A DNA stretch of 64,000 bases from NCBI GenBank assembly GCA_951406725.2, contig OX597828.1:16306001-16370000 (forward strand). The letters run 5' to 3'. How positions within the stretch are numbered: the stretch's first letter is position 1; each line of letters begins with the position of its first letter. The notes beneath the pieces are model-generated. The model was given only the letters and a program-made list of their open reading frames with translations, was not told the DNA's origin and made no database searches. This document shows positions 2,386 to 41,749 of this stretch, piece by piece. The translations under genes and the position numbers were made by a program. This DNA is from Octopus vulgaris. Its lineage: Eukaryota.

Positions 2386-2880
2386 TTATTTCTTTCTTAC
2401 TTAATTTTGAAAGAGGGTTCACCCGAGACGTTAGTCTACTTCTCCTTTTCTTTTTTTCCTGTCTGTCGGCGCACTTTTGAATACTGACAACATTTTATAT
2501 TTGTATTCTTGCATTTAAAAAAATATTTGTCTACCCGTTCTAAACTCGAACGTTGTCCAACAGTGTATCTCTTATTCCGCCCGGTCCAGTTTGGGCTAGT
2601 TAACTTATACATACAGCGGTGGTGCCCCAGCATGGCCGCGGCCTTCGGGCTAAAACATTTTAAGGATTTTAAGGATTTATACATACATACATACATACAT
2701 ATATATATATATGTATACATATATATATATGTACATACATATATGTACATATATATATACATATATATGTCTATATATATATATATATTTATAATAGGAT
2801 TAGCTCGTATACGAGTAGGTATATATTTGTAAAAAATGAAGTTCGAAAATGCTGCTGTATTATACAATTTTTAATTTTTA

Positions 2881-2930
2881 TATATACATTATAACATGTT
2901 TCAGTTCCTGAAATGAACCTTATCAAAAAA
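2881..2930 (-). ncRNA. Candidate U3-A8 variant hammerhead ribozyme in the PLE pLTR
   Basis: Minus strand: TTGATAA GGTTC atttcag GAACT GAA ACAT gttata ATGT A; stems II and III well formed, stem I poor. Confidence 0.5.
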
Positions 2931-3222
2931 AGTTATATATAAAAAGAGACAGCTCATGCCGTCAAACACAAGAAATTCATTTATAATACACAACGGAGTC
3001 AGACATCTTAGAGTTCATGTATAGTTGATATATAGTTTGAAGTATATGTTCAAAGTGTTCGATGCAGTGGCCCACGGTGGCGATACGTATTCAATACAAA
3101 AAACAGATCAAAGTGGTGGAAAGCGGTCAATACAGAAGATTGATGTTTCCGAAAGAGCGAGGAATTCATTTTTACCTTAAGCAATTGTGATGACCCATGG
3201 TGGAAGTTCGCTGGGTGGTTCT

Positions 3223-3617
3223 AGTGATTTTTTGTGAAATGCTCGGTTTTATAATGCCTGTTAGGTGGTCAATCTAGCGTAGCGTGACGTCATCAATGTT
3301 TTGACCAATCGTTTCGTTAGGTGGCTTTAATCAAGTGGAACGGGACGTCATCATTATTTTGACCAATCGCTGCATTATAACTCCCTCTTGTTTGTTTCCT
3401 GTCTTGACCAGTCGCTTCGTTAGTCAAGTATAGCGGGACGTCATTTAGATTCTGCCCAATCACGACTTATAGCTACATTAGATCTGCCCCCTGTCTGTAC
3501 TTGTTAGGTGACTATTCAAGCAGAAAAGGACGTCATCAATATTCTGACTAATGACTGTCCCCTGTTTGTATCCTGTCCATTCTAGCAGAGCTAGACGTCA
3601 TCAACTTGTTGACCAAT
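3223..3617 (-). promoter_or_regulatory. Putative pLTR Pol II promoter: five CRE-like/CCAAT modules, TATA, Inr
   Basis: GACGTCA-N12-C(C/T)AAT (+ strand) at 3286, 3344, 3437, 3529, 3594; TATAAAA on minus at 3253-3247; TCACT at 3227-3223. Confidence 0.6.
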
Positions 3618-3786
3618 CAGAATCGGGTCTGACCCTTAGCTGTATCGTATGTATCAGGGTCAGATTTGCACGAAAGAATTTTTTTCCTTTTTTTACTAAG
3701 GCATATTTCCGTCAGAGTGAGTGTCTGTTTGAAGTAGCGGCCGTGGTGAAATTTGGTTCTCCTTTTCGGAGGACTTATCTTTTGTT

Positions 3787-5313
3787 TTAGTATTCCTGGC
3801 CCAGGGTGTTTAAACTTGGTCTAAATTTTTTTATGAAATATAGTTCTTTATTTTGGCGTTGTGTGAAGGTTGCGTTGTCACTGAATTTATAGAGCGGGTT
3901 AGTTGTAAATTTCGGATTTACATTTCCAGTACATCTATCTATGTGTCCGCTGACCGGTATTTTGCGGTAATCAGGGTTTCTAATTTGTGATTTATGCACC
4001 GCCATCCTGTTACGTAAGCTATTTTTTGTATGGCCTATATACTGCCTATTGCAGCCTGTGCATGTTATGACGTAAATTAAGTTTTCTGATGCGCAGCTGA
4101 AGTTTGTTCTAATGGTGAACTGGTGGCCTTGTTCCAGTATAAATTCTGATCCTTCTTTCAAGATGACACAGATTCCGCAGTTGGGCCTTCCACATTTTCT
4201 AACTGCTGGTTTTGTGGTTGATGTTGAGTGCAGTGTAGCTTGGGTTAAAATCCTTTTCAAGGATTTTGGTTGCCGTTTACTTTTAATGATGGTGTGTGTT
4301 TCGAGGATCCGGTTCATCTTTGGGTCTCCCTTTAGTAGGGCTGTGCTTTGTAGTATGGTGTTGAAGGCCTCATTGTTGAGTGGGTTGTGTGTAGAGATGT
4401 AGGGAAGGGTTTTTAATTGTTCTTTCTTTTTTGGTTTTGTTTGTCTCAGGTCTTCTATACTTAATTTAAGTACCCGTTGGATTGCACTGTCTATTAGGGG
4501 CTGTGGATAGTTTCTATTTGTGAGTGTGGTTCTAAGTTCCTGGAGACGTGTGTGTCGGGTGTTTGTGTTTGATATTATGGTGCAAATCCTTCTAGCTAAA
4601 CAAAAAGGGACATTCATTCTAGTGTGTCGTGGGTGGCATGAATCAAAGGGTAGGTACTGTTTAGAGTCTGTCGGTTTATAGTAGATATCTGTCTCTATTT
4701 TGTTGCCGGTTATCTTAATGAGGATGTCTAAAAATGGTAATTCTATTTCGTTGTGGTCCATCGTGAATTGTATATTGTCATTTATTCCATTTAATAGAAT
4801 TTTAAATTCCTCAAGTTTCTCTATGCCTTTGTCCCAGATGATGAAACAGTCATCGAGGTATCTTTTCCAGTTGTTATGGATATAGGTGGCGAAGGTGTTT
4901 CCATATTTCTCGAGTGTCATCCGGTATAGTATTTTCTCGAGGTATCCCATCACTAGGTTGGCAAAAGATGGTGCAGTACGCGTGCCCATCGCTGTTCCCG
5001 ATCTTTGCCTGTAGAAATCATTGTCAAAAATAAAATAATTGTTCTCTAAAATGAATCTAAGTCCTTCTATTATAAGGTCTTTGTTTATGCGAGTTGGTAG
5101 TTCAAAGGGGTAGTTATTCAGCCAGAAGGTGATTGCTTCTATTCCTAGGTTGTGAGGGATGTTAGAATAAAGATTAACTACGTCGAATGATACTAGAAGG
5201 GTTTTCTCATTGACTGTTTTAGGGAGGTGGTTGAGCATATCTATATCGTCTCTTACGTAGCTTTTGATGTGTTTTAGGAAAGGTTTAAGAAGTGTGTCTA
5301 AGAACTGAAACAT
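3787..5313 (-). CDS. PLE reverse transcriptase + Cys-rich linker + GIY-YIG endonuclease (N-terminally truncated; start codon supplied by the inverted repeat)
   Basis: RT motifs [40 protein letters not shown]; linker CGRPNCGIC; endonuclease [19 protein letters not shown]...RNRMAVH...ELYFI...PSLN; 508 codons without a stop. Confidence 0.95.
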
Positions 5314-5378
5314 GTTATAATGTATATATAAAAATTAAAAATTGTATAATACAGCAGCATTTTCGAACTTCATTTTTT

Positions 5379-5427
<49 letters not shown>

Positions 5428-5474
5428 CACATATATATATATATGTACATACATATATATACATATATATCTAC

Positions 5475-5579
<105 letters not shown>

Positions 5580-5661
5580 GGTCCCGGGTTGAGTCGGGGT
5601 TAACCACAGTAAATAAGGTACTCAATACATAGCAGAGTAAATTAATTTATTTTATAGAAGG

Positions 5662-5712
5662 AGCTTCTATAAGACTAGAACTGTTTCATTCAAATGAAAT
5701 CATCAGGAAGCT
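5662..5712 (-). ncRNA. Type I hammerhead ribozyme, degenerate copy (stem III mutated)
   Basis: Reverse complement of the 7720-7770 motif with CTGT changed to TTAT in stem III. Confidence 0.6.
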
Positions 5713-6087
5713 TGCTGTCAAAATAAGTTCTGGCATTTATACATTTAGGCAGATTTAATGGGGTGGGGGACATTTTTTAGGTAAGCAGGGCACAAACTGT
5801 CTTTCTTAGGGGAGTGGTCAAAAGAATCAGTGATAAAGTAAATAAATGAATAAATAGAATAATTGAATAGAGTTTTAGGTAAATTAAAAGACTATCGCTT
5901 TTAGTCAGTTTGTCGTTGTTGTTATTAAGTGGAGGGAAGAAGTAGATAAGTATACATAAAAGAACATATAAAATAAATATACATACAAACCCACATACAT
6001 ACACATACGAATATCCATACACATACATATACATATGCCCATGTATATACATACAGACACACACATACATTCATATAAATACACTAG

Positions 6088-6135
<48 letters not shown>

Positions 6136-6278
6136 TACCTACACATTCATACATATACATATAAATACATACACATATATATACAAATACACATACACAT
6201 ACATGCAAAGACGCAAACACGCGCACACATATATCTACACATATACATATAAATATACACACCCATACACACACACAT

Positions 6279-6687
6279 ACTCTCTTTTACTCTTTTACTT
6301 GTTTCAGTCATTTGACTGCGGCCATGCTGTAGCACCGCCTTCAATCGAGCAACTCGACCCCGGGACTTATTCTTTTGTAAGCCCAGTACTTATTCTATCG
6401 GTCCGTTTTGCCGAACCGCTATGTAACGGGGACATAAACACACCAGCATCGGTTGTCAAGCAATGCTAGGGGTGGACACACAGACACACAAACTCACACA
6501 CACATATATATATATATACATATATACGACGGGCTTCTTTCAGTTTCCATCTACCAAATCCACTCACAAGGCATTGGTCGGCCCGAGGCTATAGCAGAAG
6601 ACACTTGTCCAAGATGCCACGCAGTGGGACTGAACCCGAAACCATGTGGTCGGTTAGCAAGCTACTTACCACACAGCCACTCCTGCG

Positions 6688-6689
<2 letters not shown>
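6279..6689 (-). mobile_element. tRNA-derived SINE family A (octopus OR-type, internal TA/CA tract)
   Basis: Reverse complement of ggcgcaggagtggctgtgtggtaagtagc...gggttcagtcccactgcg...gactgaaacaagtaaaagagtaaaagag; near-identical to 22521-22930 and 54139-54546. Confidence 0.88.
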
Positions 6690-6742
<53 letters not shown>

Positions 6743-7106
6743 TTTCTTCTCTCCTCATCTTTCTCCCTTATTTTATTTTGATTTTTATTTTCCCTTGACC
6801 GTCTTCAAAATCATAAAAGATATAATATATGACCTACCTACCCGCCGACACACATTTAGTGGCGCTAGAGTAAACAATCGCCAAAAGTTCCTAGAACTCC
6901 CCAGGGTTCCAGCAGGCCTAAATGAAATCCATCTACTGCTCCCCTCTCCCTTCCTTTCTATCTCTTTACCCACGGATACAAACGCAAACACTCACACACA
7001 CACTCACTCACATGCACACTCATACACATACACAAACACACATGTTCTCTCACTCATTTCCTCCTCATCCACTTATACATATGTATATATCACTCTCTAC
7101 ATGCAC

Positions 7107-7139
<33 letters not shown>

Positions 7140-7719
7140 CACATACATATACACACACAAGTACACATATGCATACAAACATAAATGTACCCGCTTTCAC
7201 ATAAACGTATACATAACTATGTACACACAAACACACATATATAAACGTACTTCAGTACACATAAACACACATAAATATCTGCGCGCATATATAAACGCAT
7301 AAGCTCATATAAAAAGATATGTGCATATAAACATACATACGCATATATACGCATCCATACGCTTATAAATACATATATGCACACATGCATGCATACATGT
7401 GTACATAAATGCATACATGCATATACATTCCTACACACATATATACATACATGCACATCCATACACATACGTACACGTACATACATATACATATCTACAC
7501 ATATACAGATATACACATACAAAAATCTACAAGTCCATATATATATATGTATATATATACACATACATATACGTATATACCTACATATACATACATATAT
7601 ATACTTACACCCATACACCAATATACATATACATATCTACATACACATACATATACATATATATACCACCCCATTAAATCTGCCTAAATGTATAAATGCC
7701 AGAACTTATTTTGACAGCA

Positions 7720-7770
7720 AGCTTCCTGATGATTTCATTTGAATGAAACAGTTCTAGTCCTGTAGAAGCT
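7720..7770 (+). ncRNA. Type I hammerhead ribozyme with intact core
   Basis: AGCTTC CTGATGA tTTC attt GAAt GAA ACAG ttctagtc CTGT A GAAGCT: stem I AGCTTC/GAAGCT, stem III ACAG/CTGT, GUA cleavage triplet ending at 7764. Confidence 0.75.
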
Positions 7771-7824
7771 CATCCTATAAAATAAATAAATATATATATA
7801 TATATATATATACATATATATATG

Positions 7825-7894
<70 letters not shown>

Positions 7895-8320
7895 TACTGA
7901 GTTTGTCGGTGTCAACAACACAGAAGAAAATGAGGCGAATGCAAAAGAAAGAAAAGATGAGGTATCTATGTCAAGTGGTAGATAAAGATGAGCTATGAAG
8001 AAAAATAGAAATATTTACATTTATTTTATATTTGAAAGTCTCAGTAAAAGTGAAAAACCACTTAGTGTAAGGGAATACGAAGAAGGAGAAATGAAGATAG
8101 AATGAATGGATTTATGTTAGACTTGAAAGATTATCGCAACTCAGCGCTCAATTGGTACTTATTTTATCGACCCCGAAAGGATGACAGGCAAAAACGACCT
8201 CGGTGGAATTTGAATTCAGAGCATGTAGACGGACGAAATGCTGCTCAGCATTTTGCTCGGTGTGCTAAGAATTCCACCGGGTTCAATGCCTTGTACAGTA
8301 TAGCCATATGGGTTTCATGT

Positions 8321-40457: not shown

Positions 40458-41749
40458 CGAGGGGAGTTCAATAAGTAATGCCCCTGACCCACTTCCCATA
40501 GCAGTAGAGCAACGAAACTTGGCACAGTTATTAGTCTCTTTCTACATAGGAACCACCCAGAGTTACGCATTTCTCCCATCGTTTGATGCAGCTCTGAAGA
40601 CCGTTTTTGTAGAAGACCCCAGCTTGGTCCTCCAACCACGACGTGACTTCAGAAATCAAGGCTGCATCATCTGGGAAACGCTTTCCTTTCAAAAACAAAT
40701 TCATGGCTGGGAAGAGGTGAAAATCAGAGGGTGCAAGGTCAGGAGAGTAGGGGGGATGGGGGATGAGTTCATAGCCGCACGCCTGTGCTTCTGATCTGGC
40801 GACACGCGAATTGTGAACCGGAGCGTTGTCCTGCAGGAGGAGGATGCCTTTGCTGATCTTGCCCCGCCTCTTGATTTTGATAGCTTCTCTTAATTTCCTC
40901 AAAAGTGAAGCATAATAGGCTCCTGTAATTGTGGTACCCTTTGCCAGGAAATCTGTCATCAGTACTCCGTCCTGGTCCCAGAAGACTGTAAGCATGACCT
41001 TGCCAGCAGAGGGCTGCACCGTTGCCTTCTTTGGAGGAGGTGAGTCACGTTGTGTCCACTGCATTGACTGGGCTTTGATCTCTGGATCATAGTGATGGAC
41101 CCAGGTTTCATCCTGTGTAATCAGTCTTTTGAAAAATTTTGACTCATCTTCTTGGCACATCTCCAAATTCATCCTCGAGCAATCGACACGTTCTTGCTTC
41201 TGGAAAGATGTGAGCAACCTGGGAATCCATCTGGCAGACACCTTTTGTATATGCAAATGGTCATGAATGATAGTTTCCACAGACCCGGTACTAATCTTGA
41301 TCTCATGGGCTATTTGGCGAATAGTTATGCGTCGATCTTCCAAAATGGCAGCCTCAACATGACGGACAGATGCCTCATCAATGGCAGAAGGGGGCGACCA
41401 GAACTGGGAGCTGTTTCCACAGAGTTCCGACCATGTTTGAATTCACGATGCCAGCGTTTTACAAGGTCATATGATGGGACATCATCACCATAAGTTACTT
41501 TCATTTTATCAAAAGTCTCCCGTGGTGTGCGTTCTTTCAAATACAAAAACCGGATCACTGCTCGACACTCAACAGGCTCCATTTCACACTTGACTCAGTT
41601 CAAACACCTGTAAATCAGAAACCACAATTAGTTCAGAGCTGTAATTAGCCACTTAATTTATAAAGATATAAATAATTGTACATGCAAAATTTCAGCTAGA
41701 TCAAATAAATGCAAGTGGGTCAGGAGCATTACTTATTGAACGCCCCTCG
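40458..41749 (-). mobile_element. Full-length mariner DNA transposon (1292 bp)
   Basis: TIRs cgaggggagttcaataagtaatgcccctgacccactt / aagtgggtcaggagcattacttattgaacgcccctcg; TA on both sides. Confidence 0.96.
40531..41582 (-). pseudogene. DD34D mariner transposase with one frameshift near 41390
   Basis: N-terminal HTH in ORF 41325-41582 (…SGRP), continuing in 40531-41343: WIPRLL, TQDETW, QDNAPVH, YSPDLAPSDFHLF. Confidence 0.93.

Follow-up and report, generated by a model that had tools for sequence, protein, structure and literature searches.

A tandem array of CRE-like and CCAAT motifs as a candidate promoter-enhancer in the pLTR of an octopus Penelope-like element

The window analysed here, a 64,000-nt stretch of the Octopus vulgaris genome, contains a Penelope-like element (PLE) whose 3' non-coding region (pLTR) carries five modules of the form GACGTCA-N12-CCAAT. 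We consider it probable, at roughly two chances in three, that this array is the element's own U3-like upstream promoter-enhancer and is likely bound by CREB/ATF-type bZIP proteins together with NF-Y. The geometry of a TATA-like box, an initiator (Inr)-like motif and a predicted splice donor, combined with the recurrence of CRE-like clusters in related elements, makes this the likely reading. With the location in the pLTR, these observations lend reasonable support to the promoter-enhancer proposed in a first-pass annotation of this DNA. The features are listed in Table 1.

Table 1. Features of the element and its module array (positions in the window)
Feature	Position	Strand	Remarks
3' non-coding region / pLTR	2820..3786	-	3' end at 2820
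Hammerhead-like motif (putative)	2885..2926	-	U3-A8 core, stems II and III, GUA triplet
Short first exon (predicted)	3176..3203	-	ATG in Kozak context (3198-3196); predicted 5' splice donor at its end
Inr-like TCACT	3223..3227	-	Predicted start at the A (3225), 28 nt from the TATA box's first T
TATA-like box TATAAAA	3247..3253	-	Module 1 CRE ~30 nt upstream; read from the sequence
Whole array	3259..3627	.	Diverged ~50-bp tandem units with variable linkers
Module 1	3286..3309	+	GACGTCA-N12-CCAAT; sole full TGACGTCA palindrome (3285-3292); promoter-proximal
Module 2	3344..3367	+	Pattern match
Module 3	3437..3460	+	Spacer diverged most of the five
Module 4	3529..3552	+	CTAAT in place of CCAAT
Module 5	3594..3617	+	Pattern match
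9-bp hairpin	3628..3664	.	z -2.6; close to the probable 5' boundary of the pLTR
PLE ORF	3787..5301	-	5'-truncated, uninterrupted; RT, CX4CX2C linker, GIY-YIG endonuclease
Inverted 88-nt copy of the element 3' end	5302..5389	+	100% identical to 2820-2907

The host element was identified from its minus-strand ORF of about 500 codons. In Pfam searches, GIY-YIG (E=3.2e-5) scored above the curated cut-off, which RVT_1 (E=4.6e-6) narrowly missed, and 773 homologs of the ORF protein were found at E<=1e-30, the best being 56-60% identical and the named ones coming from bivalves or symbiont assemblies. The element is an EN+ PLE, with a single ORF in which a reverse transcriptase (RT) is followed by a C-terminal GIY-YIG endonuclease (EN). 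The linker cysteines C373, C378 and C381 were invariant in 27 aligned sequences. A CX2-5CxxC linker between RT and EN marks the Neptune/Nematis clades (PMC8557442). Placed by this linker, the element is probably Neptune-type, our own quick tree having been built without named reference elements. Its 3' end was located by a record from sequencing run X1 and a loose end, and (AT)n comes next in another copy. An inverted copy of the 3' end at a truncated 5' end is a typical PLE arrangement (PMC3846280). The intact frame and the inverted tail, identical at 88 of 88 positions, suggest that the insertion is apparently young. The array is found 170-500 nt past the stop codon, which confirmed its annotated position in the PLE 3' region and placed it inside the pLTR, in a promoter-proximal location.

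Some other features of the window were recorded. Between the element 3' end and the (AT)n tract lie about 30 nt (2790-2819) containing a 12-nt palindrome; this stretch could represent either host DNA or a PLE 'tail'. Two inverted copies of 129 nt, 95% identical, at 5638-5766 and 7666-7794 contain a canonical CTGATGA...GAAAC hammerhead-like core; they probably derive from the pLTR of a second PLE family, and ~1.9 kb of SINE-like and microsatellite DNA lies between them. A 302-aa frame at 40531-41442 (minus strand), with matches to Transposase_1 (E=4.5e-25), DDE_3 and HTH, is a mariner-type transposase.

We then examined the modules themselves. The first-pass annotation had listed five of them, with CTAAT at the fourth, and all were found exactly where it had placed them. 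Allowing at most one mismatch, GACGTCA-N12-CCAAT gave 5 matches in comparison with 0.24 expected from dinucleotide shuffles, and none of 100 shuffles gave five. Five of the seven GACGTC hexamers in the whole window are inside the array. The module start-to-start distances of 58, 93, 92 and 65 bore out the irregular order described earlier, and a period of 58 was detected at 3260-3369. The motifs and their flanks match the CRE and NF-Y consensus. The CRE-like identity held in full for the palindrome of module 1; the other four sites are imperfect, modules 2-5 each having one perfect half-site, GACGTCAT (equal to ATGACGTC on the element strand). With consensus names taken from the cited papers, the array thus counts one full and four half-perfect CREs, and CCAAT in four of five modules.

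The modules are diverged tandem duplicates of one ~50-bp unit. As direct repeats of ~50 nt, they match the first unit at 65-73% identity. Their spacers share 5-10 of 12 letters pairwise (about 3 of 12 for random sequence), with 4 of 12 columns invariant, and homology between modules reaches ~16-27 nt upstream of the motifs; tandem duplication therefore accounts for them. The common 12-nt gap is expected, because duplication alone yields it. Two earlier statements were modified accordingly: the spacers do differ, as had been noted, but are related rather than independent, and the invariant gap, proposed as a sign of selection, is real but partly inherited through tandem duplication.

Among the five paralogs, motif columns had 1 change in 60 positions and spacer columns 11 in 60 (Fisher p=0.004, post hoc), the 16 upstream columns had 20 in 80, and motif against spacer plus upstream columns (1/60 versus 31/140) gave p=9e-5; these p-values are optimistic, as the motifs were noticed through their conservation and a star tree was assumed. 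In a neutral simulation with 20% change, 0.5% of trials produced an invariant run of at least 8 columns; with 15% change, 3.8% did. An upstream block at offsets -15 to -5, where 6 of 16 columns are invariant without a nameable motif, could be a third site or reflect shared ancestry.

The first-pass annotation had proposed an alignment of genomic copies of the family. We used contigs from four runs as copies and examined 40 of 47 substitution entries and 12 of 14 indel entries. Module columns contained 18 of the listed variants, of which one hit an invariant column; the motif-breaking variant was at 3439 (2 contigs). One listed variant turns module 4 back to CCAAT, and the module 4 position read CCAAT in two contigs of run X12, possibly through cross-mapping. 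The other listed module variants hit columns that already differ between modules, and many family copies carry letters in module 3 that are nearer to other modules. None of the 12 listed indels fell in a spacer, whereas linkers do carry indels. Joints at 3420 to 3492, 3499 to 3257 and 3632 to 3286 show modules skipped, repeated or reordered, and copy-number shuffling was thus shown: module number and order differ among family copies. Variant sites among copies numbered 1 of 60 in motifs versus 4 of 60 in spacers (p=0.36; p=0.04 with upstream columns added), a comparison confounded by cross-mapping or conversion. It is not an independent test, because 14 of the 18 variant letters are another module's letter. 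The annotated contrast of conserved motifs with drifting spacers thus stands among the five paralogs but is not significant in the motif-spacer comparison of genomic copies. In 20 of the 24 listed runs, with 12 studies and 7 organism labels represented, at least half of the element's words were present; none of these holders is recorded as RNA, a result with no bearing on expression. At 3011-3037, runs X8, X1 and X2 bear a 22-nt tandem duplication behind 3011, and the window copy is without it.

A candidate core promoter adjoins the array. On the element strand, the order is hairpin, modules 5 to 1, TATAAAA, TCACT, ATG, donor and hammerhead-like motif; relative to the Inr-like A, the proximal ATTGG lies at -84, the CRE at -67 to -60 and TATAAAA at -28. 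The predicted donor reads AG/GTAAA, with the exon/intron boundary at 3176/3175, and was predicted from sequence before contigs were aligned. In run X2, one contig departs from the reference at 3175 and continues with 255 unlike letters (that it represents RNA is a guess), a second stops at 3175 and a third passes through unspliced; the splice evidence from this run is one contig, and contigs reveal neither strand nor start. Among the rows listed for the other three runs, none had a loose end at 3175. By eye, the 30 letters listed after the donor contain no stop in frame with the ATG, which is weak evidence at ten codons. With as many as 3 mismatches allowed, the post-donor sequence had no match in the window, and it could be element body or a host exon. 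No splice acceptor was found in the aligned stretch.

The two ends of the pLTR were also examined for RNA structure. The hammerhead-like motif was picked out by a pattern search, and its U3-A8 core variant is known from PLEs (PMC4209133). Over 2600-8000, Rfam reported no hammerhead, only microsatellite-driven matches below gathering scores, and the motif folded no better than shuffles (z -1.05). Near the hairpin, loose ends were found at 3645 (X8) and 3648 (X2), and an X1 contig ended at 3648. An RNA-structure reading of the array was rejected (z -1.22; 14 of 100 shuffles folded equally well). TGATGA within the modules was rejected by eye as a hammerhead, the GAAA core being absent downstream.

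Related PLEs served as an independent test. From genome_contigs and metagenome_contigs we obtained 96 loci, kept 33 in which the endonuclease-like end was followed by a stop codon and then by 150 nt or more, and dropped 63; 13 of the kept loci were close (at least 39% protein identity) and 20 distant. At least two ACGTCA/TGACGT sites in the first 400 nt were present in 7 of 13 close versus 0 of 20 distant loci (p=4e-4), or 6 of 11 versus 0 of 19 after near-copies were merged; the cluster was missing from 6 of 13 close relatives. The 13 close 3' regions contained 25 CRE-like sites, compared with 2.05 expected from shuffles, and the coding regions of the same loci contained 8 in 19.4 kb. When hexamers were ranked in 12 loci (L020 omitted as a near-copy, the window excluded), ACGTCA came first of 2080, occurring 24 times behind the stop codon versus 1.4 expected. 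The relatives' sites occur in both orientations (10 and 12), as expected of a double-stranded DNA site, with the consensus T(A/G)ACGTCA and a T two bases upstream in 17 of 22. They lie between the stop codon and the hammerhead-like core. No alignment was obtained between the relatives' 3' regions and the window modules, weak DNA matches mapping to the hammerhead end; CRE-like sites nonetheless recur in the corresponding location in families that are 40-49% identical in protein. L017 and L021 have a cluster also ahead of the ORF start, with a pLTR on both sides of the ORF, and a further CRE-like cluster is present in L037, a dropped locus. On the quick tree, the trait grouped in the window's subclade (3 changes versus 7.4 shuffled).

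The CCAAT partner behaved differently. In none of the 13 close relatives did a CCAAT/ATTGG lie 30 nt or less from a CRE half-site, in the module arrangement or its mirror. Of the composite proposed to be under selection, relatives thus keep the CRE-like sites but not the pairing. From these sequences, the CRE cluster appears to be old in the subclade and the CCAAT pairing a later, family-specific addition. In L019 (2947-3030) and L020 (1484-1575), CRE-like doublets are inverted, forming a long palindrome ahead of the hammerhead. Single-protein scans yielded only one more distant locus, L104, which was without a cluster, and no PLE relatives were found in viral_contigs. Two-module pattern matches in genome_contigs (3) and viral_contigs (4) were rejected, as all look unrelated; none occurred with a PLE, and they seem to comprise intergenic repeats of actinobacteria, one RTX-like coding repeat and chance hits. 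The actinobacterial repeats (L098:2978-3215 and L099:2978-3205) have paired GACGTCA/TGACGTC arms and are possibly REP-like elements. L001-L016 are animal-type PLE contigs within bacterial assemblies, probably host contamination, and PLE-type proteins are labelled as bacterial GIY-YIG nucleases in public databases.

Several other explanations were weighed. A neutral minisatellite, in which five duplications of a chance unit were followed by homogenisation through conversion and the motifs were picked out post hoc, would fit the homology over ~50 bp, the ongoing module shuffling, the non-significant spacer-motif contrast among copies and the partial invariance of an upstream block (6/16) that has no nameable motif. 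Such decay leaves unexplained the top-ranked hexamer behind the stop codon of non-alignable relatives, as well as the TATA/Inr/ATG/donor order and the concentration of invariant columns, and we regard it as unlikely. The same judgement applies to the idea that ACGTCA motifs are cis-signals for the element's own protein, with DNA recognition by the GIY-YIG/Zn-linker region aiding tandem insertion beside its own pLTR, or for RNA pairing. The motif follows one PLE subclade on the protein tree, like a co-evolving protein-DNA pair; the sites adjoin the hammerhead and form inverted repeats in L019 and L020; and an anole PLE protein cuts its own ORF-pLTR junction in vitro (PMC11167929). However, the reported cleavage preference is AT-rich (ATT; PMC11167929), the sites occur in both orientations, the partner fits an NF-Y box that self-recognition would not need, and RNA pairing is opposed by array RNA folding no better than shuffles (z -1.2).

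Slightly less probable again is an array that mainly drives antisense transcription into the ORF on the plus strand, with RGACGT resembling a DPE. Plus-strand units do read CRE then CCAAT, RGACGT is present in 4 of 5 modules, Penelope and Drosophila LINEs have RGACGTGY as their conserved DPE (PMC2377424), and bidirectional pLTR promoters have been proposed (PMC3846280). In the relatives, however, A, G or C precedes ACGTCA, which does not give RGACGT, and the full core layout is on the minus strand, with no TATA-like box past module 5 on the plus strand. The first-pass annotation had raised the possibility of responsiveness to cAMP, neuronal activity or stress; none of the present results supports this or a use of the cassette by host genes. 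Retention of the cassette by host selection, as a cAMP- or activity-responsive enhancer of neighbouring (e.g. neuronal) genes, seems very improbable. The motif names suggest it, an outward-facing pLTR can drive neighbours (PMC2377424) and the 255 unlike X2 letters after the donor could be a host exon, but the copy looks young, with its 500-codon frame and identical tail, and its motifs therefore mirror the source element and not host selection at the site. Moreover, CREB/ATF1 and NF-Y are ubiquitous activators (PMC9729108, PMC11853044), and no host exon above the curated Pfam cut-off was found in the 138 ORFs scanned in the window (of 219 past the complexity filter).

We compared the array with known systems. 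In PLEs, pLTRs carry the promoter, and an upstream Penelope copy drives a downstream one (PMC2377424). Penelope of D. virilis (Schostak et al. 2008, PMC2377424) likewise has a pLTR promoter and a splice donor soon after the start, but there it is internal, lacks a TATA box and includes a DPE and tissue elements located downstream, whereas the candidate signals in the window element are upstream and consist of a TATA-like box and a five-unit CRE/CCAAT array. Against the promoter-enhancer reading stand, among other points, the imperfection of four of five CREs and the internal, TATA-less design of the one PLE promoter dissected in the literature surveyed (PMC2377424). Penelope pLTRs of Adineta vaga (PMC3846280) resemble the window element in having a putative TATA followed by a TCACT Inr, a palindrome at the pLTR 5' end and an inverted pLTR at the truncated 5' end; unlike here, an upstream transcription-factor array is not described in the excerpts of that paper.

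Similar arrays are known from retroviral elements. In the U3 of ERV9/LTR12, 5-17 diverged ~41-nt tandem repeats each carry a conserved CCAAT box and partner sites, and a TATA-like motif and Inr lie downstream of them, much as here (PMC11853044). It belongs to a true retroviral LTR, has GATA/MZF1 partners and shows demonstrated NF-Y binding (PMC11853044), whereas the window array is in a pLTR, has a CRE-like partner and is known from sequence alone; the likeness is an analogy, not homology. Mouse IAPLTR1/1a also has a retroelement promoter with TGACGTCA, for which CREB1 binding, methylation sensitivity and a CRE contribution of 50% of reporter activity were demonstrated (PMC9729108), in contrast to the window array, which has five mostly imperfect candidate sites and is not a member of the IAP family. 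As for spacing, bZIP or E-box sites in human DNA show a bias to positions 10-12 bp on the 5' side of CCAAT (PMC7793273), a figure that refers to TRE/E-box/TALE matrices and is measured to the central A of CCAAT (PMC4889920). In both cases the partner lies 5' of CCAAT at about one helical turn; the match is approximate, the distance in the array being 13-15 bp by the same measure. ATF2/3 show positional bias but little NF-Y co-binding in the human study (PMC7793273, PMC4889920), and in a human model motifs for NF-Y and ATF1 contribute to focusing the start sites that lie downstream (PMC11160661).

Terminal repeats with tandem CRE or CCAAT sites are already well known from retroviral LTRs, and the surprise is therefore limited. 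For PLE pLTRs, no description of CRE or CRE/CCAAT clusters was found in a search that mostly excluded subscription papers, Repbase reports and supplements, and the word 'promoter' is absent from the excerpted text of bioRxiv 10.64898/2026.07.22.740005.

If the array is the element's own promoter-enhancer, each unit would recruit a bZIP dimer of the CREB/ATF type at its CRE-like site and NF-Y at its CCAAT box, these factors being named solely by motif resemblance. Pol II would be driven from the adjacent TATA/Inr, starting near 3225, and the short ATG exon would be spliced at 3176/3175. Where the element had inserted as a partial tandem, transcription of the full-length downstream copy would come from the pLTR of the copy upstream of it; the promoter of the truncated window copy would face outward, in the direction of lower coordinates. 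The motif columns would be preserved because the element is selected for promoter strength, and slippage or unequal exchange may multiply the unit, as in retroviral U3 repeats.

The locus suggests a second PLE promoter design, in which upstream CRE clusters are common to a subclade and, in one high-copy family, have expanded to an ERV9-like tandem array. The array names candidate host factors and a start site, and the locus offers a handle on two-way pLTR transcription, which bears on PLE intron retention. A more far-reaching scheme, which we hold tentatively and as rather unlikely, is that the subclade keeps its CRE clusters (40-49% protein identity) as a U3-like promoter under bZIP and CpG-methylation control, and that NF-Y pairing made the promoter of the window family bidirectional. 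If this were true, the antisense transcript would be the long-postulated unspliced template that explains intron retention in PLEs.
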